From the NCBI GenBank assembly GCA_036489875.1, contig DASXEZ010000160.1, forward strand, positions 17,106 to 81,105: a DNA stretch of 64,000 nt, read 5' to 3'. Below the pieces are notes generated by a model. The model had not been told where the DNA came from. It saw only the letters and a list, made by a program, of their open reading frames with translations, and searched no databases. Of this stretch, positions 6,167 to 24,757 are shown piece by piece. The DNA is from Solirubrobacteraceae bacterium. Its GTDB lineage: Bacteria > Actinomycetota > Thermoleophilia > Solirubrobacterales > Solirubrobacteraceae. Numbering within the stretch: position 1 is the stretch's first letter; each line of letters starts with the position of its first letter. The translations under genes and the position numbers were made by a program.

Positions 6167-6206
6167 CGATCGGGGCGCCGCTTGCGGGATCATCCCAGGC
6201 CGGCCG

Positions 6207-7975: not shown

Positions 7976-8799
7976 GCGCGCGCGGGATCGCACTCGCGCT
8001 GGGCGGGCGGGTGGCGCCGCGGCCGCTCGCCGCCGCCAGCCCGCGGGCGCTCGCCATGAGGGCGCTGCCGCCGCTCTGCCTGGGCGTGATCGTCGTCGCG
8101 CTCTGGCAGGCCTACGTCGCGATCTCGGGCGTGCGCGAGTCGATCTTTCCCTCACCGCTGGAGGTCGCGCGGGCGCTCGTGCGTGATCGTAGCGTGCTGC
8201 TCTCGGGCACGGGGACGACGCTGTCGGAGATCCTGATCGGGTTCGCGGTCGCGGTCGTGGTCGGCGTCGCGCTGGCGCTCGCGGTCTCGAGCTCGCGTCT
8301 GGTCGAGCGTGCGCTCTACCCGTGGCTCGTCGTCACGCAGATGATCCCGGTCCCGGCGATCGCTCCGGTGGTCGTTCTCTGGACCGGCTTCGACATCCGC
8401 CCGCGCGTGATCGTGATCGCGCTGGTCAGCTTCTTCCCGATCGCGGTCAACACGATCGACGGCCTGCGCGCGACCGACGCCGAGCTCGTCGGGCTCCTGC
8501 GCACCCTCGGGGCGGGGCGCCGCCAGCTCTTCCGCGTGGCCAAGCTCCCCGCCGCGCTGCCCTACCTCTTCTCGGGGCTGCGCGTGTCGGCGGCGCTGGC
8601 GGTCATCGGCGCCGTCTTCGCCGAGTGGGTCGGCTCCTCCGGCGGGCTCGGCTACCTGATCCTCACCTACAACTCCCAGACCGAGACGCCGGACGTTTTC
8701 GCGGCGATCGTCGTGCTCGCGGCGATCGGAGTGGCGCTGTTTGCGGCGGTCGGGGTCGCCGAGCGTTTACTGATCCCCTGGTGGCAACTCGACGACTGA
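7972..8799 (+). CDS. ABC transporter permease (BPD_transp_1 type)
   Basis: ATG 7972 overlaps the ATPase stop (ATGA). Multiple TM segments with the EAA-like loop region LRATDAELVGLLRTLGAGRRQLF. Confidence 0.9.
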   Translation: MSARGIALALGGRVAPRPLAAASPRALAMRALPPLCLGVIVVALWQAYVAISGVRESIFPSPLEVARALVRDRSVLLSGTGTTLSEILIGFAVAVVVGVALALAVSSSRLVERALYPWLVVTQMIPVPAIAPVVVLWTGFDIRPRVIVIALVSFFPIAVNTIDGLRATDAELVGLLRTLGAGRRQLFRVAKLPAALPYLFSGLRVSAALAVIGAVFAEWVGSSGGLGYLILTYNSQTETPDVFAAIVVLAAIGVALFAAVGVAERLLIPWWQLDD

Positions 8800-8862
8800 C
8801 TTTTGTGTTTGAAGGGGGCGCCGTTGGTGCAACAATCAACACAAGCCAGCGAAAGGAGCGCC

Positions 8863-9324
8863 ATGGAGTCCTCCACACCGGCGCGCGTGCTCGTCGTAGC
8901 TCACCGCACTGCCGCAACCGCGGGATTGGGTGATGCCGTCAGGAGACGCGCGAGCGAGGGTCCGGCCACTTTCACGCTGCTGGTCCCGCGCAGCGCGCAC
9001 GGGCTGCACCGACTGATGGACCCGGAGGAGGCCGACGTGGCCGAGGCGCAAGAGATCCTCGACCGGGCGCTGCCGATCCTCTCGAGCGCCGCCGGTTCGC
9101 CGGTCGACGGCATGATCGGGGACCCGACGCCGCTGACCGCGGTCGAGGACACGATCAACGCCAGGCCCTTCGACGAGATCATCATCTCGACGCTCCCGGC
9201 GCTCGTGTCGCGCTGGTTGCGCCTCGACCTGCCGAGCAAGGTCGGCGGGCTTGGTCTCCCCGTGACGACGGTCACGGCGACGGAGGAACCGGCTGCCAGC
9301 GAGCCGGCGACGGTCGCCGGCTGA
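8863..9324 (+). CDS. conserved-looking hypothetical protein (153 aa)
   Basis: ATG 8863 is preceded by gaaaggag. MESSTPARVLVVAHRTAATAGLGDAVRRRASEGPATFTLLVP... has an alpha/beta-like pattern. No firm family assignment. Confidence 0.6.
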   Translation: MESSTPARVLVVAHRTAATAGLGDAVRRRASEGPATFTLLVPRSAHGLHRLMDPEEADVAEAQEILDRALPILSSAAGSPVDGMIGDPTPLTAVEDTINARPFDEIIISTLPALVSRWLRLDLPSKVGGLGLPVTTVTATEEPAASEPATVAG

Positions 9325-10116: not shown

Positions 10117-10944
10117 GTGATTCGCCTCTACTCGTTCCATACTGCGCCGTCGGCGCTGCTCACCTACCAGCGCGAGATGTTCGCGAGGTTCATGGACGAG
10201 GACCATGAGCTCGTGGTCGTCAACGATGGCCGCGGCGCAACCGAGGCGGCAGTGATAGCGCAGGCCGCTACGACGCTTGGTCTGCGCTCGGCGCCGGTTC
10301 CGGCGCCCGAGCACAACAACCCGAGCGACGCGCTGGCCGCGGCGATGGAGTTCGTGGTCGCCCGGCTGCTCGGCGACGACGAGGAGATCTCCGTGCTCCT
10401 GCACGCGGATGTGCTGCCGGGCGCCCGCTTCTCGCTTCGAGAACTGCTCGGCGAGGGCGACATCGCTGCTGTGGCGGAGCGCAAATACTCGCCAGACGGC
10501 CAGCGCATGCTCAGCTATCCGTGGTCGGGGTTCATCTGCCTGCGCACCCCGACCCTGCCCGACCGCGCGACGATCGGCTTCGGGGCAGGTGTCATCGACG
10601 GGATCGCCTGCGACACCGGCGGTGCCTTTCGCCGCTATCGCCGCTCCCATCCTGAGCTTCGACTCGTCGAGCTGAGCTCGGCTGCGGATCTCGACGAGCG
10701 CGAGTCAGCCGACCGGCTGCCCGACCTCGGCATGCCCTACCCCCAGGGTCGGGGACCGCAGCGCTTTGCCGGCGTGCTGCTGCACTATCTGGGCGGAGCC
10801 GGCTGGAATCCCGACGACGCGCCGCACGAGCCGGCCAAGCGCAAATGGTTCACGGCGCTCTGCGACGGCCTCCTCACCGGAGAGGTGGCGCTGCCGTCCA
10901 GCCCTCAGCCTGCGACCGCCGCGTGGCCGGCCGACACGCCATGA
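10117..10944 (+). CDS. hypothetical protein, possibly GT-A-like (first gene of glycosyltransferase operon)
   Basis: GTG start, coding-like G/C third positions, HELVVVNDGRG and LLHADVLPG segments. ATGA overlap with the next gene. The domain call is weak. Confidence 0.55.
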   Translation: MIRLYSFHTAPSALLTYQREMFARFMDEDHELVVVNDGRGATEAAVIAQAATTLGLRSAPVPAPEHNNPSDALAAAMEFVVARLLGDDEEISVLLHADVLPGARFSLRELLGEGDIAAVAERKYSPDGQRMLSYPWSGFICLRTPTLPDRATIGFGAGVIDGIACDTGGAFRRYRRSHPELRLVELSSAADLDERESADRLPDLGMPYPQGRGPQRFAGVLLHYLGGAGWNPDDAPHEPAKRKWFTALCDGLLTGEVALPSSPQPATAAWPADTP

Positions 10945-13900
10945 AACGGATCATCAGCTTCAGCCTCTACAACGACCGCCGCAAGGATGTGGTGAACGCG
11001 GTCATCAACTGCCTGCTCGCCCCGGCTGTCTACCCGGGTTGGACGTGTCGCTTCTACCTCGATGACACGGTTCCTCAGGCGACGATCGCGGCGCTCGAGT
11101 CGTTCGACCAGGTGGAGCTGTGCTGGATGCCGCGCCACACGAGCTCGGCGGCGATGCTCTGGCGCTTCCTTGCCGCGGGTGATCCTGACGTGGATGCCGT
11201 GATCTTCCGGGACGCCGACTCCTGGCTCTCGGCTCGCGAGGTGGCGTGCGTGAACGCGTGGTTGTCTGCCGGACAGAACTTTCACCTCATACGAGACCAC
11301 TGCTACCACTCGCAGGCGATGATGGGCGGGATGTGGGGCGTCCGCGGTGGCGTGGTTCCCAACGTCGCCGCTTGGATCGAGGAGTACGAGGGCACTGGCG
11401 GGACCTACGACCAAGGCTTCCTCGCCGACTGGATCTATCCGCTCACGATCGGTAGGGCGACCGTCCATCGTGGCGAGCAGCGCGACAACACCGGCGCACC
11501 GACGGACTACATGCGCGACGGCGCGGTCGCGATTCCGGACTACGACGAGATCGATGAGGCCGCGGCGGGCATCTCGTGGCTTGAGGCGCACCGTCTCAAC
11601 GCGCACCGATGCTCGCACTGCGGAGAGGTCCACCCCAGCTACATCGGCCCGATCTTCGAGGAGATTCCGTCTTCGGCGCTCGAGCTTGTCGAGCGGCTGG
11701 GTGCCGAGCCCGACATCGGCTCCCGCACGCAGCGATCCGGTGCGCGCACGGTGGTGGCCGGAGACTTCGACGGGGGCTGTGGGTTTGATGTGCTGTGCCT
11801 CGGTGGCGAGGCACCGACACGCCGGCTCGCTCGCCGGCTCGCCGACACCGAGCATCGCGTTTTCCTGCTGGCTATCGAAAGCGACCCCTCCGCATCGGCG
11901 CTCGAGCTCTCCGAGGGCTGTTATGAGGTCCAGCTGCCGGTGGACGATCCGGCGGTCCCAGCGGCCCAGATCGCGGCTCTCACCGAACTGTGCGCCCAAG
12001 CCTCAATCGATCAGGCCTGCATGCTCTTCGACGCCGCCACCGTGGGGGCGTCGTCGGCGCTCGCGCTGGCCCGCCAACTCGGCTTCAAGCTCGTCCAGGT
12101 CGGAGCCGGAGAGGAGGCAGGCGCCGACCTCGAGCTTGCCGGCGGCGAGGAGGACGACGCTTGGCTGACCCTCCACGAGCGGTGGATCCCGTGGCACGCG
12201 AAGGTGGCGATCGTGATCGTCAGCTTCGACAACCGCGAGCAGCTCGCGGCGACGCTCGAGAGCCTATTCCGAAACACGCCCTACCCGAACTTCGAGGTGG
12301 TCGTCGTCGACAACGGCTCCGCCCCCGATCTGCTCGCCTACCTCGAGGGCTACATGACGGGCGAGTCGCGTCTGCGGGTGGTTCGCAACGATGCCAACCT
12401 CGGCTTCGCGCGGGCCTGCAACATCGGCATCGCCGCCTGCGCCGACGCCGAACGCGTGGTGCTCCTCAATGACGATGTGATCCTCACGCCGGGATGGCTG
12501 GCGGGCCTGTTGCGTCACCTCGGCGACGAGAGCGTCGGTCTCGTCGGCCCCGTCACCAACAACGCTCGCGGCGAGTCTCGGATCGAGGTGCTCTACACCG
12601 ACCTTCGTGATCTCGACGGCTTCGCGCTCGCGCAGGCGCGGGAGCATCGCGGGCAGACGCTCGAGGTCGGGATGCTTGCGATGTTCTGCGTTGCCTCCCG
12701 CGCCGAGGTCCTCGCCCGCGTCGGAGATCTCGACGAGCGCTTCACGATCGGTATGTACGAGGACGACGACTACGCGCTGCGTTTGCGTCGCGCCGGCTAT
12801 CGACTCCTTTGTGCCCGCGATGTCTACGTGCACCACTGGGGAGGGGTGTCCTTTCGGCGTCTCGATCCGGGCATCCACGACGAGGTGCACAGCACGCACC
12901 GGGCGGCCTTCGAGGAGAAATGGGGCGCGCCGCCGGAGGACCCCGCGCTTCTCGCTGACGCCGCCGCGGGAGTGCGAGAGGGCGGCATGGATCCGCGAAC
13001 GCCGTCGTTCGCGGCACATCTCGCGCGGCGTTTCGAAGCGCACGTCCCGATTGCGGGTCCCGGCGATAACCTCCGTTCGCTGCTCGCCTCGGCTCCCGCT
13101 GTCGTGCTGCAGGGCGGCGATCCGCAGCTGCTGCGGCGGCTGATCCGCGCGGCCGGTGGCAGCGACGCGTTCATCGGCGGCGCGCTAGCGGTCGCACTCG
13201 CGCAGCCGTTGGAGCGCCGCGCGCCACCGGATTTCCGCGTGCAGGCGTACGTGCCCGCCTTCAACGAGGCCGACATCCTCGCCGCCACGGTGGGTCACCT
13301 GCTGGCCCAGGGCGTCGAGGTGCACCTGCTTGAGAACCACTCGACCGATGGGACCTGGGAGCTCTGCCAGCGGCTCTGCGGTGACCCGCGTGTTGTGGCC
13401 GAGCGCTACGGGTCAGAGCGCCACTACGACTGGCGCACGATTCTGCGGCGCGTCGAGGATCTCGCCGCGGGCTCCGACGCTGACTGGCTGATGCTCCTGG
13501 ATGCCGACGAGTTGCGCGTTGCGCCATGGCCCGATCGGACGCTGCGCGACGCGCTGTGGGCGGTCGAGTGCGCCGGCTTCAACGCCGTCGATCACACAGT
13601 GTTGAACTTCCCGCCCACCGACGACGACTTCCAGCCCGGCATCGACCCGAGGGCCCACTTTCGCCATGTAGAGATGTGGGCGGGGCCGGGTTTCGCGCCA
13701 CAGATCAAGGCGTGGAAGTCCGGTCCTTGGCGAGCACAGCTCGCTCACAGCGGTGGGCACGAGGCGGAGTTCGCGCAGCGCCGCGTATTCCCGTTCAACT
13801 TCATCGATGAGCACTACCCGCTGCGCTCGCAGCGGCACGCCGAGCAGAAGGTATTCGCAGACCGCGTTCCGCGCTGGAACGAGGACGAGCGCCGAGATGG

Positions 13901-15041
13901 CTGGCACGCCCAGTACGACGGCCTCCGACCGGGTCATCGCTTCCTTCGCTCCGCACGCGAGCTCGAACGCTATGACCGGGCGCGCTACGTCCAGGACCAC
14001 CTCCTCGAGTGTCTTGCCCGGATCGGCGTCGGCGAGGAGAGCGCACCTCATGCGCGCCATGGGGGGCGGCGGGCCGCCGAGGTCAGCATCGTGTACGTGA
14101 CCCACCGGGGCGAGCCGCGTTTCGAATGGTTCGCGGACGCTCTCGGCGCGCAGCTGAACGGCGAGGACATAGAGGTGATCGTCGTGGACGGCCTCCACAG
14201 CGCCGAGCGCGGCGAGCGTTTCGTGCGGGCCGTCGATGGCCACTTCCCGCTGCGCCACGTGCCGGCCAAGCCGACGCCCTACAACGGTCCCCACCGTCGG
14301 ACGCGTCGTGAGTACTTCGCTCCGGCGAACGCCCGCAACAGCGGCATCGTGCACGCACAGCGACCGTACATCGTGTTCGTCGACGACCTGTCGCTGCCGG
14401 CGAGCGGCTGGTGGGAGGCGGCAGCGCAAGCCGCACGCGAGGGATATGTGGTCGCCGGCGCCTACCAGAAGCATCGCCAGATGGTCGTCCGGCGCGGCAT
14501 TCTCAACTCGAGCCGCCTCGACACCAGCGGCCTTGACTCCCGCTGGCAGCTCGGGAGCGAGGAGAGGCGAGTCGCTGTCGGCGGTGGCGCGCTGTTTGGC
14601 TGCAGCCTGGGCGCTCCGCGCGAGCTGCTCCTGCAGCTGAACGGATTCGACGAGCTGTGCGACGCGATCGCCGGCGAGGACGGCCAGCTCGGCTACCGCC
14701 TGGAGCACGCCGAGGTGCCGATCTATTATGACCGCCGCATGCTGACGATCGAGAGCGTCGAGGATCACACGCAGGAACCGGTGCTCGCGCGGCTCAATCA
14801 GGTGGCCCATCCCGCGGTGTATATGGCTCGCCTACGCGAGTTCGGCGTGCAGGAGCGCTGCCGGCCCGGAGGGTGGGACAACGAGCACATGATCTTCGAC
14901 CTCGTGCACGGCCAGCGGGCCACCGCAAGCATCGGCAATCACGCGGATCTGCGCGCGCTCGACCCCGGCGCGCTCGAGGCGACGACGGCAACCTTCCCGC
15001 GTCATCACTGGTTCGACCAGCAGCCGCTTGACGAGCTGTAG
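10941..15041 (+). CDS. 1366-aa four-module glycosyltransferase
   Basis: ATG 10941 (MKRIISFSLYNDRRKD...).
Module 1 is an uncharacterised GT-A-like module with FRDADSW.
Module 2 is classic GT2 (VAIVIVSFDNREQLAATLESL...VVVVDNGS...LLNDDVILTPGW...MYEDDDYALR).
Module 3 is GT2-like (YVPAFNEADIL...LENHSTDGT...LLDADE).
Module 4 (VSIVYVTHRGEPRF...VIVVDGLHSAERG...ARNSGI...FVDD) is paralogous to the next gene. Confidence 0.85.
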   Translation: MKRIISFSLYNDRRKDVVNAVINCLLAPAVYPGWTCRFYLDDTVPQATIAALESFDQVELCWMPRHTSSAAMLWRFLAAGDPDVDAVIFRDADSWLSAREVACVNAWLSAGQNFHLIRDHCYHSQAMMGGMWGVRGGVVPNVAAWIEEYEGTGGTYDQGFLADWIYPLTIGRATVHRGEQRDNTGAPTDYMRDGAVAIPDYDEIDEAAAGISWLEAHRLNAHRCSHCGEVHPSYIGPIFEEIPSSALELVERLGAEPDIGSRTQRSGARTVVAGDFDGGCGFDVLCLGGEAPTRRLARRLADTEHRVFLLAIESDPSASALELSEGCYEVQLPVDDPAVPAAQIAALTELCAQASIDQACMLFDAATVGASSALALARQLGFKLVQVGAGEEAGADLELAGGEEDDAWLTLHERWIPWHAKVAIVIVSFDNREQLAATLESLFRNTPYPNFEVVVVDNGSAPDLLAYLEGYMTGESRLRVVRNDANLGFARACNIGIAACADAERVVLLNDDVILTPGWLAGLLRHLGDESVGLVGPVTNNARGESRIEVLYTDLRDLDGFALAQAREHRGQTLEVGMLAMFCVASRAEVLARVGDLDERFTIGMYEDDDYALRLRRAGYRLLCARDVYVHHWGGVSFRRLDPGIHDEVHSTHRAAFEEKWGAPPEDPALLADAAAGVREGGMDPRTPSFAAHLARRFEAHVPIAGPGDNLRSLLASAPAVVLQGGDPQLLRRLIRAAGGSDAFIGGALAVALAQPLERRAPPDFRVQAYVPAFNEADILAATVGHLLAQGVEVHLLENHSTDGTWELCQRLCGDPRVVAERYGSERHYDWRTILRRVEDLAAGSDADWLMLLDADELRVAPWPDRTLRDALWAVECAGFNAVDHTVLNFPPTDDDFQPGIDPRAHFRHVEMWAGPGFAPQIKAWKSGPWRAQLAHSGGHEAEFAQRRVFPFNFIDEHYPLRSQRHAEQKVFADRVPRWNEDERRDGWHAQYDGLRPGHRFLRSARELERYDRARYVQDHLLECLARIGVGEESAPHARHGGRRAAEVSIVYVTHRGEPRFEWFADALGAQLNGEDIEVIVVDGLHSAERGERFVRAVDGHFPLRHVPAKPTPYNGPHRRTRREYFAPANARNSGIVHAQRPYIVFVDDLSLPASGWWEAAAQAAREGYVVAGAYQKHRQMVVRRGILNSSRLDTSGLDSRWQLGSEERRVAVGGGALFGCSLGAPRELLLQLNGFDELCDAIAGEDGQLGYRLEHAEVPIYYDRRMLTIESVEDHTQEPVLARLNQVAHPAVYMARLREFGVQERCRPGGWDNEHMIFDLVHGQRATASIGNHADLRALDPGALEATTATFPRHHWFDQQPLDEL

Positions 15042-15044
15042 CCG

Positions 15045-15986
15045 TTGACCCCCAGCGTGAGCATCGTATGCGCGACGCATCGCCCCGACCCTCGCTTCGA
15101 TCTCCTCGCCGAGAGTCTCGGCTCCCAGCTGGGCGATGATGGCGCCGAAGTCCAGGTCATCGTCGTCGATGGCCTGCACGACGCGGAACGCGGAGAGCTG
15201 CTTCTGGCGCAGACAGGTGACCGTTTCGCGCTCGAGCATGTGCCAGCAAAGCCGACTGCGTGGAACGGCGCCTATCGCGTGGCGGCCAACGACTACTACG
15301 CGCCTGCGAGCGCGCGCAACACCGCGATTGTGCACGCATCCGCTCCCTACGTCGCGTTTGTGGACGACTGGAGCACGCTGCAAGCCGACTGGTGGACACG
15401 CGTCCGCTCCGCCGCCGCGAACGGCCACGTGGTAGCAGGAGCCATTCACACCCGATGGGGGGACGGGGGCCGGCTCGAGCGCGACCGCCGCTGGACGCTC
15501 GGCGAGAGCGCGCATGCCGTTCCGGTGGGTGCCGGCAACCTGGCCGAGGCCAACTGCGCGGCGCCGAGGGACCTGCTCGTCTCGGTCAATGGCTTCGACG
15601 AGCTCTGCGATCCCGCCGGCAACGAGGGCTATCACCTCGGCACTCGTCTTTCGTGGGCCGGTGCGGAAGTGCTCTATGACCGCCGTATGCTCAGCGTGCG
15701 AAGCGCTGAGCGTCACCGCCACGACGTCGTGCGCCGCTTTGATCGAGTCACCGACCGCGTCCCCTACATGAACACGCTCCGCGGCTTCGGCGTCGCGCAG
15801 CGCTCTTTCGACGGACCCTTCGACAGCTCCCATCTCGTCTGGGATGTCCTGTTCGGTCGTCACGAGAAGGGCAGTCTTGGAAACCACTACGACCTCGCGA
15901 CGCTGTCAGTGGACGATCTCCCAGCCACAGCTGAGCGCCTCCCACTGACACACTGGCTGGACGGTCGATCGTTGGGGCGCCTATGA
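15045..15986 (+). CDS. glycosyltransferase-like protein, paralog of module 4 of the preceding gene
   Basis: VSIVCATHRPDPRF...VIVVDGLHDAERG...HVPAKPT.WNG...YYAPASARNTAIVHA..PYVAFVDD...NGFDELCD...YDRRML aligns by eye along its whole length with residues ~1040-1366 of the upstream protein. TTG 15045 or GTG 15057 start. Confidence 0.8.
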   Translation: MTPSVSIVCATHRPDPRFDLLAESLGSQLGDDGAEVQVIVVDGLHDAERGELLLAQTGDRFALEHVPAKPTAWNGAYRVAANDYYAPASARNTAIVHASAPYVAFVDDWSTLQADWWTRVRSAAANGHVVAGAIHTRWGDGGRLERDRRWTLGESAHAVPVGAGNLAEANCAAPRDLLVSVNGFDELCDPAGNEGYHLGTRLSWAGAEVLYDRRMLSVRSAERHRHDVVRRFDRVTDRVPYMNTLRGFGVAQRSFDGPFDSSHLVWDVLFGRHEKGSLGNHYDLATLSVDDLPATAERLPLTHWLDGRSLGRL

Positions 15987-17470
15987 GCGTGCATGCCATC
16001 GTCTTCTCGCGGGATCGAGCAGCCCAGCTCGACCTCCTCCTGACCTCGCTGACCACCAACGCGCCGGACTTGGCGGACTCGCTCACGGTGCTGTGGCGTG
16101 CAACCGACGAGCTCTACCGCCACGCCTACGACGTCTGCCGAGGCGAGCATCCCCAGGTCGAGTTCGTCGCGGAGTCGAGCTTCGCCGACGACGTGCGGAG
16201 CCTGCTGGCGCCGGCTGAGCAGATCGTCTTCTTCACCGACGACAGCGTTCTCTTCCGGCCGCTGGAGGGTCGTGAGCGTGCCCCGGGCGAGTGGCTGATC
16301 CACGATCCGGAGCTGCTGGCTTTCTCGCTGCGACTGGGGCGCAACTGCGAGGACTGCTATCCGCACTCGCGCCGCCAGCTCCAACCCGAATTCAGCGCGC
16401 ACGGTGACGCCCTGAGCTGGTCGTGGAGCGGCGCCGATGGGGACTTCGGATACCCCATGAGCCTCGACGGGCACGTCATGGACGCGGCTCTGCCGATGCA
16501 GTTGCTGGGCGCCCGGCAGCCGGCGAACCCGAACGAGCTCGAGGCCGCGATGGCCCAGGCCGTGGCCTCGGTACCGCTAGCGCGGCGTGTCGCGTCCTAC
16601 CGGGAGAGCCACCTGGTCTGCATCCCCGCCAACCGCGTCAACGAGACGCACCCCAACCGCTTCGACAGCGCCAGCGGCGCCGACCCCCATTCGCTCAACG
16701 TTCGCTACCTGAGCGGTGAGCGGCTCGACCTCGGCGGGATCGATTTCACGGCTGTCGACGCCGCCCACGCTGAGCTGCGTCTCGCCTGGCGAGGGGCGCC
16801 ACGAAGCGGCTCGCGCGAGAGCGTGTGCCTGATCGCGGTCGTGAGCGGCTCGAGCTACGAGGAGTACGCGGAGCGGATGTTCGAGTCTGCGCGGCGCATG
16901 TTCCATCCAGCCGACGACGTCGAGTTCCTCACGTTGCCGGGAGCCCCCGGTTGGCCGGAGGCGACGCTCTATCGCCATCACGTGCTCGCCCACCATCTCC
17001 CACAGCTGCGCCACGACTACGTCTTCATGGTAGACGCCGACATGCTCGTCGAGTCGCCCATCGGCCCGGAGATCCTCGCGCCGCTCGTGGCCACGCGTCA
17101 CCCGGGCTTCGTAACCACGGCACGCTCGGAGCTGCCCTACGAACGACGCCCCGAGTCGGCGGCGCAGGTGCGCGAGGACGAAGGCGGGGTCTACTACGCC
17201 GGCGGCTTCCTTGGCGGCGAGCGTGGGCGGCTGCTCGAGCTCTCACAGCGTATTGCCGCCAGCGTGGATCGCGACGAATCCCGCGGAGTCCTCGCCCGCT
17301 GGCACGACGAATCCCATCTCAACCGCAGTTTGATCGACACGCCGCCGTTCCTGACCCTCTCGCCCGCGTACTGCTATCCGGATGACGATTCGCGCTACCG
17401 CCGGATCTGGCGACAACGCTATCGGCGCGCGTTGGTGGCGCTCGACAAGCCCAACGGCGAGCGCGTGTGA
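15983..17470 (+). CDS. two-module glycosyltransferase: N-terminal GT-A-like module (TDD motif) + C-terminal GT6-family (ABO/alpha-1,3-Gal(NAc)T-like) module
   Basis: C-terminal half reads FMVDADM...TRHPGF...PYERRPESAA...EGGVYYAGGFLGG...ARWHDESHLNRSL...TLSPAYCYP, matching the hallmark GT6 motifs (DXD, YERR.ESAA, FYY.GG.FGG, WHDESHLN, LSPEY). N-terminal half reads IVFSRDRAAQLDLLL...IVFFTDDSVLF. ATGA overlap upstream. Confidence 0.9.
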   Translation: MSVHAIVFSRDRAAQLDLLLTSLTTNAPDLADSLTVLWRATDELYRHAYDVCRGEHPQVEFVAESSFADDVRSLLAPAEQIVFFTDDSVLFRPLEGRERAPGEWLIHDPELLAFSLRLGRNCEDCYPHSRRQLQPEFSAHGDALSWSWSGADGDFGYPMSLDGHVMDAALPMQLLGARQPANPNELEAAMAQAVASVPLARRVASYRESHLVCIPANRVNETHPNRFDSASGADPHSLNVRYLSGERLDLGGIDFTAVDAAHAELRLAWRGAPRSGSRESVCLIAVVSGSSYEEYAERMFESARRMFHPADDVEFLTLPGAPGWPEATLYRHHVLAHHLPQLRHDYVFMVDADMLVESPIGPEILAPLVATRHPGFVTTARSELPYERRPESAAQVREDEGGVYYAGGFLGGERGRLLELSQRIAASVDRDESRGVLARWHDESHLNRSLIDTPPFLTLSPAYCYPDDDSRYRRIWRQRYRRALVALDKPNGERV

Positions 17471-18153
17471 GCGACACGGTCACGGTCTGCGTGCCCTGCT
17501 ACGGCACCCCCGAGTTTCTTTCGCAGACGCTCGCGAGCGTCGCAGCGCAGACCGTCCCGGTGCTCGAGACGATCGTCGTAGATGACGGGTCGGAGCCCGC
17601 AGCCGCTGCGGCGATCCGCGCCATCAGCGAGCGCTTCGGTGCGCGCTACCTACGCGTGACGCACCGCGGCCTGCCGAATGCCAGAAATGCGGCGTTGATG
17701 CTCGCGCGCGGGTCCGGCTTCCTGCCGCTGGACTCCGATGATTGGATCGAGCCCGCCTACGTTGAGCGCACGCTGCCGCGGCTCCGCGACGCCGACGTGG
17801 TCTGCGTCGGTCTGCAGGAGCACGGCCTGCACAGCGGACGCTTCCTGCCGGGCTACGACCGGCCACTGGAAGAGGTCACCCTCGATCACCTCTGGCAGAT
17901 GAACCGCTTCTTCTACTGCTCGCTGCTGCGCACTCAGCTCCTGCGCGAGGTCGGGGGGTACAACGGACGTATGGTCACGGGCTACGAGGACTGGGACCTG
18001 ACGATCGACCTCCTCTCGCGGGGGGCGCGCTTCGTCGCGGTCAACGAAATCCTGTTCAACTACCGTACGCGCGCCGACGGCTTGCTGGCTCGGGCGGAGC
18101 GCGACCATAGGGAGGCCAACATCGCGCTGATGCGGGAGCACCACCGCCAATGA
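17467..18153 (+). CDS. GT2-family glycosyltransferase
   Basis: VTVCVPCYGTPEFLSQTLASVAAQT...IVVDDGS...GLPNARNAAL...LPLDSDDW are typical GT2 motifs. GTGA overlap upstream, ATGA downstream. Confidence 0.9.
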   Translation: MSDTVTVCVPCYGTPEFLSQTLASVAAQTVPVLETIVVDDGSEPAAAAAIRAISERFGARYLRVTHRGLPNARNAALMLARGSGFLPLDSDDWIEPAYVERTLPRLRDADVVCVGLQEHGLHSGRFLPGYDRPLEEVTLDHLWQMNRFFYCSLLRTQLLREVGGYNGRMVTGYEDWDLTIDLLSRGARFVAVNEILFNYRTRADGLLARAERDHREANIALMREHHRQ

Positions 18154-19082
18154 GACCGCGCCGCGTGGTGATCTGGGGCCACCCGCTTCACTCGCACACC
18201 CATTCCTATATCCACGAGGGCTTCGCTCGCGCCTTCGTGTCGCTCGGGATCGAGACGATCTGGACTGCCGACCCCCAGGCGCTTGCGGGACTCGACCTCG
18301 ACGGGACCCTCTTCATCACCGAGGGTCAGGTCATCTCCGGCATGCCCTACGACTCGCGCGCGCGCTATGTGGTCCATAACGTCGACGCCAGTTGGTGGCG
18401 CGGAGGCGAGCGCAGCGCCCTCGTTCTCCAGGTCTATACGAACGCCCCGCGCGAGCGTTTCGAGGCCGGCCTGTCGATCGAACGCCTCGACGCCTACACC
18501 TACGTCGAGCGTGACGACCGCGGCATCGTGACGCTCTATCAGCCCTGGGCCAGCGACCTGCTTCCCCACGAGTTCGACTTCGACGTGGCGCTTCCGCCGG
18601 TGTGGCCTGCAGGCGAGATGGACGGGCTGCCGGCGAGCCCCTACTTCGCCGCGTGGGTGGGCACGATCGGGGACGGCGTCTTCGGCAACCGCCCGCAGCT
18701 GAGCGGATTCTTCGAGGCCTGCGAGAGCCACGGCATCGATCTCCTTCACCGCGCCAGCGTCGATCGCGCCACCCACATGTGCGTCGTACGTTCGAGTCTG
18801 CTCGCGCCCGCAATCGTCGGCGCGTGGCAGCTCGAGCGCGGCTACATCCCATGTCGCATCTTCAAGAACATCAGCTACGGCCGGCTCGGGGTGACCAACT
18901 CCCCCCACGTGCAGGAGATCTTTGAGTCGGAGGTGCTCTGTCGCGGTGACGGCGGCGATCTGTTCGAGGTGGCCATCGAACGGGCCCGGGAGCGGGCCTT
19001 GCTGCGCGAGCAGATGCTCGAGGTGCAGGCCCGGCACACCTACCTGAATCGCATCGAGACGATCCTCGCCCTCCTGACGTGA
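18150..19082 (+). CDS. hypothetical protein of the glycosylation operon (possible glycosyltransferase)
   Basis: Intact 310-aa ORF, translationally coupled on both sides. The N-terminus VVIWGHPLHSHTHSYIHEGFARAF resembles uncharacterised GT-associated proteins I recall from phage and polysaccharide loci. No firm motif. Confidence 0.65.
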   Translation: MRPRRVVIWGHPLHSHTHSYIHEGFARAFVSLGIETIWTADPQALAGLDLDGTLFITEGQVISGMPYDSRARYVVHNVDASWWRGGERSALVLQVYTNAPRERFEAGLSIERLDAYTYVERDDRGIVTLYQPWASDLLPHEFDFDVALPPVWPAGEMDGLPASPYFAAWVGTIGDGVFGNRPQLSGFFEACESHGIDLLHRASVDRATHMCVVRSSLLAPAIVGAWQLERGYIPCRIFKNISYGRLGVTNSPHVQEIFESEVLCRGDGGDLFEVAIERARERALLREQMLEVQARHTYLNRIETILALLT

Positions 19083-20758
19083 TCGTCGCGCACCTCTCCA
19101 ACCACGGCGGCCTCATCGCGGACTTCGAATGCGTGGCCGCTGTGCTTGACCTCGACGTTCGCTCGTTTCGCTACGACGACGGCTACAACATCGGACCGGA
19201 GCGTGCGGAGCGCTCGTGGGAGCGATGGCGTGAGCGCCTTGCGAGCGCCGATGTGGTGCTCGTGTCCGACACGGCACCACTTGCGCGCATCGTCCTCGAG
19301 CGGCTTGAAGAATTCGCGGGTCATGTCGTCCTCTGGGTCTGCAACCGCTTCGACTACAGCGACCAGGCGACCAATGACTGCGGCTTTCCCGACCCCGGCT
19401 ACTACGAGCTGATCCGGCGCTGCGTTGACCATGAGCGCGTACACATTGCTCCCTACTCCGCATTCGAGATCGAGTACGCCCGAGACAAGGGCGTCGAGCT
19501 GGGCGAGCGTCTCATCAAGCCCCTCGGCCGCCGCCGGCCTGAGCCACACCGCGCATCAGCGCGCGGTGGCGTCGACCGCGCCGCGACCGTCTATGTGCCG
19601 CCCTACCACAACGACACGATCTTCATGGACCTGGCCGCTCGCTGCGAAGCGTTGGGGGTGCCCGCCTGGTGCGGGCGCTACAGCCGCCTGGAGGAGGTGA
19701 GTGAGTTCCGGGCGGTCGTACACATCCCCTACGCGTGGTCAACCGTCGCCTTTTTCGAGCGCTTGCAGGCCGCGATCCCGACCTTCATCCCGTCCGCCCG
19801 CCTGCTTCTCGAGATGTGGCGGCAGCCGAACTTCTTCTGGCCAGACTCCCAGCGTCTCGAGGAGCTGCTCACCGAATCAGAGTGGTATGCGCCCGAGCAC
19901 GAGGGCCTGCTCGTCCAATTCGACTCCTTCGAGGAGCTCGGCGAGAAGCTCCACGAGCTCGACCTCGAGCCCGTGTGCGAGCGGCTACGGGAGTTCGGGG
20001 AGCGGCACGCGATCCGAACCTCCGTCGCCTGGAGCGCGCTCTTCGACGAGATCGAGCACGATTCCGTCCGCCGCCTGCGTCCCTACAAGGAGCTCCTCGA
20101 GCGCCACACCGAGGTCGATGGCGATCAGCCGTCGCGGTTTGCCAGCTTCAGCTTCGCCTTCGAACACGTGCAGCAGACGCGGGCACGGACCGTCGTCGAG
20201 CTCGGCACCACCCGCAGCTACGTCCACGGCGGGCTTGCGGGCTGTAACGACGACGACCCGATCCACTGGCGTCCTGATGCTCCCGAACGCTGGGACTGGG
20301 GTGCCGGAGCCTTCACCCTGCTCGCGGCTCTCTGCCTCCCCGACTGCGAGATCCACACCGTCGACACCGCCTCGAGCCACATCGAGCGCGCCAAGGTGAT
20401 GACGGCCGCGCACGCGCGGCGCATTCGCTACCACGTCTGCGACTCGGTCGATTTCCTGCGCTCCTGGGGCCCGGGCACATTGGATCTCGTGTATCTCGAC
20501 ACCGGCGACATGTGGCCGATCGAGCCAACCGCTCGTCACCAGCTCGCGGAGGCGCAGGTGCTGTGCGAGGAGCGCTTGCTCTCGGGCCAGGGCCTGCTGT
20601 TGATCGACGACATCGGCAACCCGACCCCGGGGCGGTTTGGCGACGACTCCCCCCACGGCAAGGCCAAGTACTCGCTGCCCTATCTGCTGGAGCAGGGCTT
20701 CGAGGTCGTCTTCGAAGGGTTTCAGTTGGCGCTCAGGCCGCCGGCACGCCGAACCTGA
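19079..20758 (+). CDS. two-domain protein: unknown N-terminal (GT-like?) domain + C-terminal class I SAM-dependent methyltransferase-like domain
   Basis: GTGA overlap upstream. The C-terminal part TVVELGTTRSY...DLVYLDTGDMW...GLLLIDD fits an O-methyltransferase (Methyltransf_24-like) layout. The N-terminal domain is unassigned. Confidence 0.75.
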   Translation: MIVAHLSNHGGLIADFECVAAVLDLDVRSFRYDDGYNIGPERAERSWERWRERLASADVVLVSDTAPLARIVLERLEEFAGHVVLWVCNRFDYSDQATNDCGFPDPGYYELIRRCVDHERVHIAPYSAFEIEYARDKGVELGERLIKPLGRRRPEPHRASARGGVDRAATVYVPPYHNDTIFMDLAARCEALGVPAWCGRYSRLEEVSEFRAVVHIPYAWSTVAFFERLQAAIPTFIPSARLLLEMWRQPNFFWPDSQRLEELLTESEWYAPEHEGLLVQFDSFEELGEKLHELDLEPVCERLREFGERHAIRTSVAWSALFDEIEHDSVRRLRPYKELLERHTEVDGDQPSRFASFSFAFEHVQQTRARTVVELGTTRSYVHGGLAGCNDDDPIHWRPDAPERWDWGAGAFTLLAALCLPDCEIHTVDTASSHIERAKVMTAAHARRIRYHVCDSVDFLRSWGPGTLDLVYLDTGDMWPIEPTARHQLAEAQVLCEERLLSGQGLLLIDDIGNPTPGRFGDDSPHGKAKYSLPYLLEQGFEVVFEGFQLALRPPARRT

Positions 20759-23246
20759 ACGGCACTCGCCGCCAGTTGCGCCAGCGCGGGTACCAATCCG
20801 GCAGAGGGGAGGGGACCGCCGGTCGCTCCCCGCGGCGCTCGGGCGGCTGCTCCTCCCACGCCAGCAGCGCATTCGCCCAGGCCGGAGCCGGGTCGGGCGC
20901 CTCCGTGGGTCGCAGCGCCGGCATGACAAGGATCTCCGCCGTCGGTTCACTCCTCTGTCCGCCGGGGCCGATCGCACGCAGTGTGATCCTCGAGGTGCCG
21001 CTCGGATCAAAGCGCCGCAACACCCCCACGGTCTCGGAGCCGTCGTAAGAAGCGACGACCTCGCCGTTGAGCTCGAGCTCGTAGCGCTCCACGACTCCGG
21101 GCGGCGGCGTCCAGCTCAGTTGCAGCGCAGCGCCCTCGAAATGTCCGCTCAGACTGCTCGCGGCGTCCAGATCGTCCGAGACGATCGGAGGCGGCGTGTC
21201 GAAGGCCAGCGGCGGGGCGCCCGAACCGACGTGGGCGATCGGTTCGAGCAGGGCCAGCGCCTGCGCGAGCGGGACGATTGCAAGTCCGGCGGCGACGTCG
21301 CTGACGCCGAAGCTGAGCACGAGCGTTTCGTCGCGCAGCGCCATGCCGGCGCAAAACTCGACGCGGTCGGCGATGAAGCTGAAGGGCCGCGACATCGCCA
21401 TGATCGAGTGGTCGGGCCCCAGCGCCAGCAGCCGATGCAGGTAGCGGGCGGCGGGCCCGCTGCGGTCCACTTCATGCACGACGAAGAGGTGGCCGCCGTC
21501 GTAGGGCACGCCTTGGGATCCGCCCCGCAGGTGATGTGCCTCGGCGGGTGCGTCGTGCCGTGCGATCATCTCGGTGCCGCCGCTGTGCGGATCGCAACGA
21601 AGCAGCGCGGTGGGGGCGCAGCTGTAGAGGACGTGCGGGACACCAGCCAGGGAGAGCGGCATCCAGTTCTTCTCGTGGCGCTCACCGTGCGGCCCTGCGA
21701 GCGCGGTGACCTCGACGATTTCGGCGCCCTCGAGCCTGAGCAACGCCACCTCGCGCCGCTCATCGGGGTTGAGATCACAGACCGTCGCCGTCGCATACCA
21801 GGTGTTGTCGCACTGGAACAGCCGGCAGTCCTCGTAGCCCTCGACCCGGGTCGGGTAGCGCTTCGGCTGCTCGGTGCGATCGACCAGGGGCGCCATCGTC
21901 CTCACCGCCAGATCGGAATCCAGCTCGATCAGGTAATTGATGGTGCGGAGCACCCCGTCCTCGTCGAAGATGTCACCGCCGATCTCGTAGTTGGCGGTTC
22001 GCACGATCATTCGAAAGCCGTCCCCGTCGCTGGCGATGCTCGGGTTGAAGCAGGGCCATGCCGGCTCGACATCGAGCTTGATCTCGCCGATCCTCGTCCC
22101 GGGCGCCAGCGCCGTCAGCGTCGCCGCAGGCGAGCGCTCACCCACGACTGCGCCCGCCTCGGGTCCGAGGGCCGACACCCGCACCGCCTCGGGCGCGCGC
22201 TGGAGATCGCCGAGCTGGCGGCCGGCCGCCTGGCGCACCTCGTCGGGCGTATCAGTTCGCGTGACGAGCTCGTGCAAATCATCACGCGCCTCGTCCTCCC
22301 AACCGAGCCCCGCAGCCGCGAGGCCCCTCTCCAGGCGCAGGCCCCACCCATACACCTCGCGGTGAACGAACAGCACATCGGCGGGATAGGGAATCTCCAT
22401 GCCGCGGCTCGCGAACATGTGTGCCATCGAGAAGTCCCCGCGACGGCGGTGTATACGGGCCAGCTCGTAGAGCGGCTCGGCACGGGCCGGCCGCCGCTCC
22501 CACGCCTCCAGAAGGATCGATGTCGCCGCTCCAACATCCTCTTGAGCCACCAGCATGCCCTGCACCAGGTTGGCGTAGAAGACCTCCTCGTCCCATCCGC
22601 CGAGCTCGACGCGCTGACGGTAGGCATCGATCGCCGCCTCGCGCTCCCCGAGCTCCTTCAGCGTCTGCGCCAGGTAGAAGGTCGCGCGTGGGGCGTTCGG
22701 GCTCCGTGCGAGATCGCGTCGCAGCAGGCCCAGGTCGCGGATCAGCTTCTCGGGCCGCGCCGAGCCGTCCGCGTGATGCTCGACCGTCAGCACCTCGAGC
22801 TCGCCCTGCTCGAACCTGCCGTCGGTTGCGAGGTGCTCGTGCGTCGACCCGGAGTACCACCAGCGACGGTCTCCGCGTACCAGGCGGAGCACCCCATAGT
22901 CGAGCGTGCCAGTGTCGCGAATCAGGTACGCGTCGAGCGTCAGGTCCGGCAGCGGCCCGCTCAGGCGCACGGTCATGTCCGCGTCGAGCGCCAGTAGATA
23001 GTCGGCCTTGCCGTGAGCACGTTCCATCAGCTCGGTGCGGTTGTGGCCGAAGTCGATCCACGTCAGCTCGTGCAGTTCGCCCGGGAGATGGGACAAGGAT
23101 GAGCGCACAAGCTCCTGGGTGCCGTCCGTCGACCCCGTGTCACAGATGATCCAGCTGTCTATCAACCCCCGCACCGACGCGAGGCAGCGGTCGAGAATTG
23201 CTGCCTCGTTACGAACGATCATGCACAGGCAGATCGACTTCTTCAT
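20733..23246 (-). CDS. 837-aa GT2-family glycosyltransferase with TPR region and C-terminal beta-rich domains
   Basis: N-terminus reads SICLCMIVRNEAAILDRCLASV...WIICDTGSTDGT...LALDADM (GT2). A TPR-like segment follows (ATFYLAQTLKELGEREAAIDAYRQRVELGG...PLYELARIHRRRGDF). Then comes a ~330-aa domain with FNPSI and HEKNWMP motifs, and a final FN3-like ~90 aa. The domains after GT2/TPR are tentative. Confidence 0.85.
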   Translation of the reverse strand: MKKSICLCMIVRNEAAILDRCLASVRGLIDSWIICDTGSTDGTQELVRSSLSHLPGELHELTWIDFGHNRTELMERAHGKADYLLALDADMTVRLSGPLPDLTLDAYLIRDTGTLDYGVLRLVRGDRRWWYSGSTHEHLATDGRFEQGELEVLTVEHHADGSARPEKLIRDLGLLRRDLARSPNAPRATFYLAQTLKELGEREAAIDAYRQRVELGGWDEEVFYANLVQGMLVAQEDVGAATSILLEAWERRPARAEPLYELARIHRRRGDFSMAHMFASRGMEIPYPADVLFVHREVYGWGLRLERGLAAAGLGWEDEARDDLHELVTRTDTPDEVRQAAGRQLGDLQRAPEAVRVSALGPEAGAVVGERSPAATLTALAPGTRIGEIKLDVEPAWPCFNPSIASDGDGFRMIVRTANYEIGGDIFDEDGVLRTINYLIELDSDLAVRTMAPLVDRTEQPKRYPTRVEGYEDCRLFQCDNTWYATATVCDLNPDERREVALLRLEGAEIVEVTALAGPHGERHEKNWMPLSLAGVPHVLYSCAPTALLRCDPHSGGTEMIARHDAPAEAHHLRGGSQGVPYDGGHLFVVHEVDRSGPAARYLHRLLALGPDHSIMAMSRPFSFIADRVEFCAGMALRDETLVLSFGVSDVAAGLAIVPLAQALALLEPIAHVGSGAPPLAFDTPPPIVSDDLDAASSLSGHFEGAALQLSWTPPPGVVERYELELNGEVVASYDGSETVGVLRRFDPSGTSRITLRAIGPGGQRSEPTAEILVMPALRPTEAPDPAPAWANALLAWEEQPPERRGERPAVPSPLPDWYPRWRNWRRVPFRFGVPAA

Positions 23247-24757
23247 GCCGAGCTGCCGGCGAGCTGCGCGATCGACGCGGCTGCGATCGACTCCGCGTGA
23301 CCGTTGTGCAGGATTCGCCCGTCATGGATCCACATCAGCCGGTCGGGGCGCGCGATCAATCCACTCGGGTCGTGCACACGCTGGATGATCGAGGTTCCGT
23401 GACGCAAGAGCTCGCGCACATGCCGCTCGGTGCGCTGACGCAGCGCGGGGCTGTCCAGCGCCGGAAGGCCGTCGATAAGTAGCAGCGGGCCCGACGCGCA
23501 GTGCAGGGCGGCGCAGAGCATCACTCGTGCCGCTACGTCGCTTCCGGCCTGCTCCAAGCTCTGGGGGAGAGCCTCCGCGAAGCCGCCGTCACGCGCAAGC
23601 TGAGACATATGACGGTCCACCGCGCTCACATCGGCGCCGAGGAAGGCGGCAAGCAACTCCAGGTTCTGGGCCACGCTGAGACCCGCCTGCACGGCGTCGG
23701 CTAGACCCCTGACCAACGTCGGCCGAGCAAGCACCTCCAGCGTGCCTTGGTGGGGCTCGCCAATACCGGCGATCGCCTCGATCAAGGCGCCGCCGGCCGG
23801 CTCGTCGGCTGCCGCGACCACGCCGACGTATTGGCCGGCGCGCACATGGAAATGACCGTCACTAAGGCCGGCTGGCAGCGACAACGAGGCCGCGAGAACG
23901 ACGGTCTCATCGAGGCTGGGCCGGGGATCCGCTGCGGGCTTCGAGGCAGCGCGACCCATGCCTGCCCGCACTTGCGGCTCGATGTCGATCGCGAGCGTGG
24001 TCTGAGTCGCAGCCGCGGCCGGGTGGGTGCACGCCCCGAGCAGCCGTGCAGCGTGGAGTCGGCGAGTTGCACTAGGGCTGCTCGCCTCGTCGATAACACG
24101 GCTGCGCCTCCGATCGGCGTCAAGCGGCGGCTCGACCCGCCAGCCGCTCGGCGTGGCGTCGAGCATCGCGTAAGCGGACGCCGCGCTCGGCTGAGGGTCG
24201 GTCGGACTCGTCGCCACAAGCACCCCCTCACGTACCTCGTCGATCATCAGGACGTCGCGCCCGAGTCGGGCAACCTCGTTCCGCAGCTCGCCGAAGAAGA
24301 CGACCGAAGGACGGTCGAGCGCGACACGGAGCGCCTCGGGTATCCCCACCCGCAGCATCACGGCGTCGACCTGGTCCATGTCGATGCCCTCGACGCTCGA
24401 GGCGCAGATCACCCGCAGCCGGTCGAACCTGTTGCGCCGAGCGGCCGCCCGGACGAGGTCGACGTGGGTAGGTACGGAATCGATCGCGATCACATCGGCA
24501 CCCGCCGCGGCCGCGGCCAGAGCGAACGCGCCCACGCCGCAGCCCACTTCCACCACTCGTGCCTGAGCCGGCAGCGCGTCGAGCAGCAGGGCTATCTCGG
24601 GCGAGTCGATCCACCCGTGCTCCAGCATCCAGTTGGTCTCCTCGTCCCCGACCTCGGGGTCGACGCACAACCAGATTGGTGGGCGCCGGGACACCGACAC
24701 CCGGATCAGCCCGCGAACTCCGTTCATCGCGGCGCAGGCTAGCGAAAGCCGCGTCAA
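23243..24757 (-). CDS. fusion protein: class I SAM methyltransferase domain + degenerate (non-catalytic) Wzt/TagH-like ABC ATPase fold
   Basis: N-terminal motif I VVEVGCGVGAFALAAAAAGADVIAID. The C-terminal ~200 aa align by eye to polysaccharide-export ABC ATPases, but Walker A is replaced by VGVVAAADEPAGGA, the signature by AGSDV and Walker B by LLLIDG. ATGA overlap with the downstream gene. Start is at 24757 or ATG 24727. Confidence 0.8.
   Translation of the reverse strand: MTRLSLACAAMNGVRGLIRVSVSRRPPIWLCVDPEVGDEETNWMLEHGWIDSPEIALLLDALPAQARVVEVGCGVGAFALAAAAAGADVIAIDSVPTHVDLVRAAARRNRFDRLRVICASSVEGIDMDQVDAVMLRVGIPEALRVALDRPSVVFFGELRNEVARLGRDVLMIDEVREGVLVATSPTDPQPSAASAYAMLDATPSGWRVEPPLDADRRRSRVIDEASSPSATRRLHAARLLGACTHPAAAATQTTLAIDIEPQVRAGMGRAASKPAADPRPSLDETVVLAASLSLPAGLSDGHFHVRAGQYVGVVAAADEPAGGALIEAIAGIGEPHQGTLEVLARPTLVRGLADAVQAGLSVAQNLELLAAFLGADVSAVDRHMSQLARDGGFAEALPQSLEQAGSDVAARVMLCAALHCASGPLLLIDGLPALDSPALRQRTERHVRELLRHGTSIIQRVHDPSGLIARPDRLMWIHDGRILHNGHAESIAAASIAQLAGSSA

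Follow-up and report, generated by a model that had tools for sequence, protein, structure and literature searches.

A two-domain glycosyltransferase of a Solirubrobacteraceae bacterium joins a DXD-type GT6 domain to an unclassified GT-A module

The fused gene and its GT6 domain

The gene described here encodes a 495-residue two-domain glycosyltransferase (GT) and lies in a 64,000-nt stretch of about 68% G+C DNA (the window, on which all coordinates are based) from contig DASXEZ010000160.1 of a Solirubrobacteraceae bacterium, a family placed in the class Thermoleophilia of the Actinomycetota. The open reading frame (ORF) at 15983..17470 (+ strand) starts with an ATG that shares four nucleotides with the upstream stop codon (ATGA), while its own stop overlaps the GTG start of the following gene (GTGA), and the later genes overlap likewise. 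Because start and stop codons overlap in this manner gene after gene, translational coupling is indicated for the run from 10845 to 20758. The protein carries no signal sequence and is 100% identical to the NCBI entry 'MAG TPA: hypothetical protein VGG41_18670 [Solirubrobacteraceae bacterium]'. Since six contigs from independent samples bear the identical gene along with the same flanking genes, and orthologues of 56-81% identity retain both the length and the two-domain layout, the fusion is a real gene, and an assembly or frameshift artefact can be ruled out.

As for its layout, the protein consists of an N-terminal GT-A-fold module (hereafter the N-domain; residues 1-272, 15983..16798, +), an interdomain linker (residues about 273-279, 16799..16819, +), and a complete minimal GT6 catalytic domain (residues 280-495, 16820..17467, +). 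In the full-length AlphaFold2 (AF2) model, which has a mean predicted local distance difference test score (pLDDT) of 92.6 and a predicted template-modelling score (pTM) of 0.60, both domains are confidently modelled and residues 273-276 are disordered (pLDDT <50). From the high pLDDT, the disordered linker, and the low pTM, the two modules are predicted to fold independently.

The assignment of the C-terminal half to GT family 6, made in an initial annotation from the sequence alone, was confirmed, and this half is a bona fide GT6. Here, the Pfam Glyco_transf_6 hidden Markov model (PF03414) matches residues 314-473 with 120.1 bits (cut-off of 25 bits, E-value of 1.1e-34), and a phmmer search of PDB sequences finds BoGT6a at 2e-34 and human GTA and GTB at about 1e-27. 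Moreover, a profile built from the GT6 clade of the query covers BoGT6a residues 2-233 from end to end (E-value of 5e-58). With Foldseek, the AF2-modelled domain (pLDDT mostly >90) aligns to BoGT6a with a template-modelling (TM) score of 0.81-0.82 and a root-mean-square deviation of 2.4 Å, and to GTA and GTB with TM scores of 0.65-0.70. The score against NCBIfam NF041524 (the Gltr_6 subfamily), at 123.8 bits, falls under the cut-off of 250, making the query a relative rather than a member of that subfamily.

All of the GT6 hallmarks first noted are present, with their order and numbering intact, these being FMVDADM, TRHPGF (HPG at 373-375), PYERRPESAA, EGGVYYAGGFLGG, ARWHDESHLN, and LSPAYCYP. 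As was also proposed, the DAD triplet is homologous to the catalytic DXD, for D351-A352-D353 (17033..17041, +) in the VDADM segment aligns column by column with the metal-binding D211-V-D213 of human GTA (VDVDM) and with N95-A-N97 of BoGT6a (FNANL). Next in order are the acceptor determinants A1 (His) and A2 (Gly) of H373-P374-G375 (17099..17107, +), with H373 and G375 corresponding to H233 and G235 of GTA and to the same residues in BoGT6a, whereas bovine alpha3GT has Gln and Trp instead. The donor-selecting motif Y404-Y405-A406-G407-G408 (17192..17206, +), itself part of the fourth hallmark, places A406 at GTA L266 and G408 at GTA G268. This YYAGG is identical to that of BoGT6a, a proven N-acetylgalactosamine (GalNAc) transferase, which upholds the earlier remark on small donor-selecting residues, and AGG is the commonest state of the motif in the clade. 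In W440-H441-D442-E443-S444 (17300..17314, +), E443 is the counterpart of the catalytic Glu (GTA E303, BoGT6a E192) and W440 of the acceptor-stacking Trp. Finally, in A486-L-D-K489 (17438..17449, +), followed by R494, A486 occupies position A7 (Ala in GTA, Ile in BoGT6a, and Trp in alpha3GT) and K489 is the invariant C-terminal Lys (BoGT6a K231, alpha3GT K359), six residues after which the domain ends. In the clade alignment, E443, W440, and K489 are invariant or nearly so.

The initial annotation considered DXD exceptional, taking bacterial and phage GT6 to carry NXN as a rule, a premise that is outdated and, for phage, wrong. GT6 had previously been split into three clades, one of which is a prokaryotic D-X-D clade whose members include cyanophage P-SSM2, marine metagenome homologues, and Parachlamydia PaGT6 (PMC3516806, 2012; PMC3961637, 2014), and which is clade 1 of Thiyagarajan et al. 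2012. PaGT6 requires Mg2+ or Mn2+ and transfers GalNAc to H-antigen/H-type (Fuc-alpha-1,2-Gal) acceptors (PMC3516806, PMC3961637). Our census of GT6 in GTDB species representatives counts 69 loci of the DxD type and 11 of the NxN type among 80, and the numbers for 186 metagenomic GT6 proteins are 184 and one, respectively. DXD, not NXN, is the usual state of prokaryotic GT6. The taxa in the census are Dependentiae, Chlamydiota, Pseudomonadota, Bacillota, Actinomycetota, Verrucomicrobiota, Planctomycetota, Cyanobacteria, and one Woesearchaeota metagenome-assembled genome (MAG). Two contigs binned to Woesearchaeota (CAZHOH010000002.1, L064, and CAZHOH010000001.1, L067) bear a DxD-type GT6, with the archaeal origin, as given by binning, being putative; in the 2014 literature, GT6 was said not to occur in archaea.

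The GT6 half of the query is a new member of this known clade, which it extends into the Actinomycetota. Like the rest of the clade, it has a minimal domain and a retained DXD and lacks the BHB membrane-binding domain at the C-terminus. A crude neighbour-joining tree, which carries no support values, places it among standalone prokaryotic enzymes of this family from soil and actinobacterial sources (61-65% identical) and together with the DXD prokaryotic sequences, with the NXN enzymes forming a separate clade. Identities of the domain are 38.6% to BoGT6a, 35.2% to the P-SSM2 protein, and 33.2% to human GTA. Among the annotated phage genomes of INPHARED, GT6 was found only in cyanophage and uncultured phage, at no more than 34% identity, and in no actinophage. 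With DXD present and PaGT6 as a precedent, the query GT6 can reasonably be taken as metal-dependent, and judging from its residues it is probably GalNAc-transferring, as is the norm of the known clade.

Compared with the characterised enzymes, the query domain resembles PaGT6 and P-SSM2 GT6 in having a minimal domain of ~220 residues, the DXD, the catalytic Glu, the acceptor Trp, the C-terminal Lys, and a His/Gly/small-residue pocket. However, these two proteins are standalone, whereas the query GT6 is fused to an unclassified GT-A module. In addition, GT6 comes with GT11 (the alpha-1,2-fucosyltransferase family) in P-SSM2 and in Parachlamydiaceae-type loci (L028), whereas the query locus is without GT11. 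The 2014 paper (PMC3961637) gives one non-Gram-negative case of GT6, and the query host is a high-G+C actinobacterium. BoGT6a (PDB IDs: 4AYJ, 4AYL, and 4CJ8) is the best match in both sequence and structure and shares the YYAGG and the His/Gly pair, but it is an unfused, metal-independent NXN enzyme with Ile at A7. Human GTA and GTB and bovine alpha3GT share with the query the fold, the DXD-Mn2+ site, the catalytic Glu, and the C-terminal Lys, and GTA additionally the Ala at A7 and the Gly at A2. In contrast, vertebrate GT6, which are type II membrane proteins, possess a stem region, and their catalytic domain is larger; at position 266, the query has Ala where GTA has Leu and GTB has Met, and T245 is replaced by Pro.

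The N-terminal module and its association with GT6

The AF2 model of the N-domain alone is of high confidence (pLDDT of 92.1 and pTM of 0.91), and its nearest solved folds according to Foldseek are GnT-I, POMGnT1, SpsA, TarP/TarS, GnT-II, K4CP, and WrtF, all inverting GT-A enzymes, with TM scores of about 0.45-0.5 and 9-15% identity. Searches of Pfam (E <= 10), NCBIfam, and PHROGs gave no match, nor did PDB sequences when searched with the single sequence and with the family profile, and five further members of the family likewise lack a Pfam match at E <= 10. Three known families were considered more closely. For GT2, hhalign against the neighbouring bona fide GT2 returned a probability of 0.05%, and membership was not supported. 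The best Foldseek match belongs to GT13, the family of GnT-I and POMGnT1 (1foa, E-value of 2e-8, query TM score of 0.51, and 13% identity), but the lack of a PDB sequence match with the family profile and of a Pfam match leaves GT13 membership unsupported. Homology to GT11 found no support either, there being no Pfam GT11 match, and a jackhmmer GT11 profile seeded with the P-SSM2 GT11 retrieved none of the N-domain ORFs. Against viral predicted structures, Foldseek gave only generic GT2-like GT-A folds. Since the GT-A fold is confidently modelled, yet no sequence family matches, we regard the N-domain as a predicted GT-A glycosyltransferase module of an unclassified family.

The TDD motif that the initial annotation had noted in a GT-A-like N-terminal domain is present. 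T85-D86-D87 (16235..16243, +), a DXD-type motif, lies at the end of a beta strand (E80-85 in the AF2 model, FFTDD), and D86 and D87 are invariant in all 23 aligned members of the family; going by the GT-A fold, this motif would bind the metal and the nucleotide. A candidate catalytic-base region is found at S160-L-D162-G163 (SLDG; 16460..16471, +), where at least 90% of members share S160, D162, and G163 and whose distance of 75 residues from the DD motif is like the spacing in GnT-I. The family motifs read FSRDRxxQLDxLLxS, D86-D87, SLRLGxN, YPxSLDG, NPNxLE, NRV...NR, and AHxE, and the polar residues D162, E187, N217, H262, and E264 are conserved across sequences that are 30-50% identical. An inverting mechanism, with roles in it for D162, E187, and H262, is suggested by the modelled fold. 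The family consists mostly of standalone proteins of ~270 residues, with all database members unnamed ('hypothetical protein'), and it is large, comprising >600 proteins by a word-indexed search, at least 529 places in metagenomes, and 164 places on IMG/VR viral contigs.

We found the order of N-domain followed by GT6 in about nine clusters at 50% identity (P0004, P0176, P0011, P0177, P0020, P0182, P0222, P0243, and P0227), and these fusions are distributed over at least four distinct positions in the GT6 tree. The initial annotation had not seen this architecture described, and indeed our literature search found no paper on an N-domain-GT6 fusion; however, the proteins are already deposited as 'hypothetical protein' or 'glycosyltransferase family 6'. 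Thus, while many DXD-type bacterial GT6 do exist, the fusion itself amounts to these ~9 clusters, and as far as searched, both the fused architecture and the N-domain family are undescribed, though recurrent in sequence databases.

More commonly, the N-domain and GT6 are separate neighbouring genes. When partners were sought within 10 kb of GT6 in the same 80 loci, an N-domain homologue was present in 36, from several phyla and mostly on the same strand at a distance of 0.1-3 kb, and no other gene neighbours DXD-type GT6 as often. GT11 is the partner in 20 further loci, the remaining 24 have neither, and none has both. Hence, the N-domain and GT11 are mutually exclusive beside GT6 in 56/56 informative loci (Fisher's exact test, p = 6e-7 for all loci and 1e-4 for the DxD-type loci alone, with kinship ignored). 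Genes for 6-deoxyhexose synthesis are only moderately enriched near the N-domain, which is suggestive without being decisive: RmlB-like genes occur in 17/36 N-domain loci versus 5/20 GT11 loci, RmlD-like genes in 7/36 versus 0/20, and GMD-like genes in 13/36 versus 5/20. All three are absent from the window. Other contexts of the N-domain include giant multi-GT proteins and a related actinobacterial chromosome (L001/L005) whose cluster is syntenic with the window; there, the N-domain is joined to the GT1-like module instead (P0014), with GT6 as the next gene.

GT11 also occurs fused to GT6. In alphaproteobacterial MAGs, the two share a single ORF (L050, 9017-10756; L068, 870-2570; L081, 9413-11587), with the GT6 being of the NXN type, and we view these as natural two-step 'H then A/B' fusions that parallel the one in the window. 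They and the WbnK/WbnI-type pairs of GT11 and GT6 follow the same partner-adjacent logic as the query, but combine a GT11 partner with an NXN-type GT6 in place of an unclassified GT-A partner with a DXD-type GT6.

Phage-borne copies were seen as well. The phage-like contig L003 (JGI 3300039466 Ga0415148_0000206), which has terminase, portal, and capsid-protease genes, includes a glycosylation cassette (genes 2793-9037) in which GT6, the N-domain, a GT2, a GMD-like dehydratase, and a methyltransferase are each encoded by a gene of their own, and relatives of the N-domain are found on IMG/VR contigs, including L168-L176, with GT6 among those loci. These finds point to the synthesis of a GT6-type glycan by phage-borne genes. 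In MAGs of intracellular symbionts, namely in Dependentiae and Chlamydiota loci (for example L057, 9062-10669; L070, 11809-12528; L013, 16012-16962), signal-like hydrophobic N-termini are frequent on GT6, the N-domain, and neighbouring sugar-modifying genes, in contrast to the cytoplasmic-looking protein of the window, and some of the GT6 are joined to GT2 modules. Searching the literature for papers that deal with both GT6 and Dependentiae turned up none.

Proposed function and alternatives

Starting from the observed gene integrity, domain identities, folds, motif homology, and neighbourhood statistics, we infer the metal dependence, donor, acceptor, order of both reactions, and final product as follows. 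The 495-residue protein would be a cytoplasmic bifunctional enzyme whose two independently folding catalytic modules are held together by a short flexible linker. Its C-terminal module, as a GT6 of the prokaryotic minimal-domain DXD clade, would be retaining and dependent on a divalent metal and would most likely move alpha-1,3-GalNAc (or, less likely, Gal) from a uridine diphosphate (UDP) sugar onto a beta-Gal that bears a 2-O branch, giving a determinant like that of blood group A. A branched acceptor is suggested by His/Gly/Ala at A1/A2/A7, the combination seen in enzymes that act on fucosylated acceptors, whereas alpha3GT has Gln/Trp/Trp. The N-domain, an unclassified and probably inverting and metal-dependent GT-A enzyme, would carry out an adjacent step in making this glycan, most likely the attachment of the branch for which a GT11 alpha-1,2-fucosyltransferase is responsible in other GT6 loci. 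Together with the products of the translationally coupled GT2, GT1-like, and methyltransferase genes of the operon, the protein could thereby build a methylated saccharide, oligomeric or polymeric, or a glycan attached to protein. That the two modules would catalyse consecutive steps is inferred from the mutual exclusion of N-domain and GT11, each of which is at times fused to GT6, and the simplest reading is that these are alternative suppliers of the step next to GT6, likely the 2-O branch on the acceptor Gal. We consider this account of a bifunctional protein, with a GT6 and a GT-A module for the neighbouring step, to be on balance the probable one.

A protein of comparable design is reportedly the PgtA of Dictyostelium, a cytoplasmic bifunctional diglycosyltransferase that combines a GT2 beta-3-galactosyltransferase with a GT74 alpha-1,2-fucosyltransferase, and so is said to perform consecutive steps with two GT modules in one soluble polypeptide, using an alpha-1,2-fucosyltransferase outside GT11. 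Its resemblance to the query is conceptual only. GT11 is predicted to have a GT-B fold and GT74 a GT-A fold (PMC12595478).

Several observations weigh against the proposed account. The exclusivity with GT11 is uncorrected for phylogeny, and it might reflect the existence of two cassette types instead of functional equivalence. GT6 lies near the N-domain in only 9/30 metagenome loci and 15/72 viral loci (each of at least 12 kb), and the linkage is concentrated in the closest N-domain relatives (8/10 of the best viral matches versus 7/66 of the others). Because most N-domain loci are thus without a nearby GT6, the family as a whole is not dedicated to GT6, and only a subfamily is linked to it. 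The His/Gly/small-residue pocket of GT6, which accommodates 2'-fucose in GTA and BoGT6a, fits the proposal, but as His/Gly/Ala-or-Ile is found in N-domain-linked and GT11-linked enzymes alike, these residues do not discriminate between the partners. In the 64-kb window, there are no genes for a 4,6-dehydratase (6-deoxyhexose), GT11, or a lipid carrier. Furthermore, Pro385 in the query replaces a Thr that contacts the acceptor or product (GTA T245, BoGT6a T134), on account of which the acceptor may differ from the H-antigen.

Among the alternatives, one places both modules in the same pathway, though at steps that are not consecutive, with the fusion serving co-expression or multi-enzyme assembly and the N-domain adding, for instance, a beta-linked backbone sugar. 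This would suit the joining of the N-domain to a GT1-like module in L001, its presence in giant multi-GT proteins, the missing GT6 linkage of most distant family members, and its fold neighbours, which are mostly beta-GlcNAc or beta-hexosyl transferases. We nevertheless think it rather unlikely, as it has to contend with the complete exclusion of GT11 in the 56 informative loci, the recurrence of N-domain-GT6 fusions in parallel to GT11-GT6 fusions, and a pocket in the linked GT6 that is still of the type suited to a branched acceptor. Of more concern is the specificity of the GT6 itself, for which a different donor (UDP-Gal, as for GTB and alpha3GT, or UDP-Glc/GlcNAc) or an acceptor other than the H-antigen would mean a product that is not A-like. 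In GT6 enzymes, as established for GTA and GTB, specificity can switch by one or two residues, and with Pro385 in the position of the conserved Thr and the closest characterised enzyme being no more than 39% identical, such a departure is a possibility to be taken seriously, albeit one we hold to be the less expected outcome: A406, G408, and G375 are the same as in the GalNAc-transferases BoGT6a and GTA, and PaGT6 of the same DXD clade transfers GalNAc to H-type acceptors.

Two further alternatives have little in their favour. GT-A pseudo-enzymes are known in other families, and the N-domain might by analogy be a non-catalytic relic with a carbohydrate-binding, scaffolding, or regulatory part to play. 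This is very unlikely, given the invariance of D86 and D87, the retention of the five polar residues named above between sequences of 30-50% identity, and the wide occurrence of the N-domain as a standalone protein. The view initially taken, in which DXD sets apart a vertebrate-like, metal-dependent GT6, here extended to a possible exchange with vertebrates, has for it that the DXD is homologous to the vertebrate motif and that the small residues at 266 and 268 resemble GTA. But with DXD being in the majority among prokaryotic GT6 and its clade already in the literature, with the query being closer to BoGT6a than to GTA and having a minimal catalytic domain and no stem region, and with its closest tree neighbours being soil and actinobacterial enzymes, this view is scarcely credible. 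'Vertebrate-like' does not describe the domain, and a vertebrate derivation is rejected by its placement among prokaryotic enzymes in the neighbour-joining tree.

Returning to the account of a bifunctional enzyme for consecutive steps, a bolder form of it can be put forward, though only tentatively and with more doubt than confidence. Here, the N-domain would found a new GT family, of which the GT6-linked subfamily replaces GT11 by adding the 2-O branch that DXD-type GT6 require, and N-domain and GT6 would form a mobile two-step cassette. If true, a fucose or other 6-deoxyhexose branch on Gal would come from the N-domain, and the fused protein would be an ABO-A-like synthase in a single polypeptide; the cassette would be common to Actinomycetota, Dependentiae, Chlamydiota, and many phages, and could decorate cell or virion surfaces. 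While the GT6 half adds little beyond extending a known bacterial and phage clade into the Actinomycetota, the main lead is its partner, a large and nameless GT-A family that has been fused to GT6 repeatedly. Should this partner supply the branched acceptor, it would open up a new way of making blood-group-like glycans and be a candidate for a new family in CAZy, and the fused protein would be a compact two-step enzyme for the chemo-enzymatic synthesis of A-type antigens. The pairing of N-domain and GT6 also flags a glycosylation cassette borne by phages.

The gene cluster and other features of the window

Upstream of the fused gene and co-directional with it is a gene for a 1398-residue protein that has several GT2 modules by Pfam (10845..15041, +) and a syntenic homologue of 1151 residues in L001/L005. 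Between the two genes lies that of a 313-residue, weakly GT2-like protein (15045..15986, +). The C-terminal module of the 1398-residue protein (VSIVYVTHRGEPRF...) and the 313-residue protein (VSIVCATHRPDPRF...) are clear paralogues, which by sequence points to a tandem duplication of the weakly GT2-like module that is kept in the syntenic locus L005. Immediately downstream and translationally coupled is a 228-residue GT2 glycosyltransferase (17467..18153, +; Pfam, 83.6 bits), with homologues in L005 and in the phage-like contig L003. This is followed by a 310-residue GT1-like protein (18150..19082, +) with a weak Pfam Glyco_trans_1_2 match, strong homologues of which are found in 16/80 GT6 loci across phyla and in L003, and which is the module joined to the N-domain in P0014. 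Going by this distribution of similar sequences, the GT1-like protein is a candidate for the cassette's third conserved component. The last gene of the run encodes a 559-residue protein whose C-terminal domain is methyltransferase-like by domain search (19079..20758, +). Convergent to it are genes for an 837-residue protein with GT2 and tetratricopeptide repeat modules (20733-23246, -) and a 504-residue methyltransferase (23243-24757, -), both with homologues in L001/L005. Within the cluster, no genes for a priming transferase, flippase, polymerase, or dedicated exporter were seen, which leaves several candidate acceptors: a glycan of the cytoplasm, a protein, or an intermediate that is linked to a lipid and made elsewhere.

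Outside the cluster, a pair of genes for an ABC-2-type transporter (ATPase and permease; 4233-6019, +) is found about 5 kb upstream, with NMT1-type and binding-protein-dependent transport genes in between. Further downstream, an 881-residue ORF (37969-40614, -) encodes a protein whose N-terminus is hydrophobic and whose following ~800 residues are glycine-rich, PGRS-like GGxGGxGGN repeats. At the DNA level, these form an imperfect repeat with a 9-bp period, which accounts both for the G+C content of 80% and for the strong skew at 38-40 kb. Close by, an ORF at 40913-42406 (-) contains about five copies of the Gly/Asn-rich repeat NANGGGGGNGNTANGGQSNSGN and has a Cys-rich C-terminus, and a filter based on codon-position G+C prefers the + strand ORFs 41148-41621 and 41625-42236 over it.

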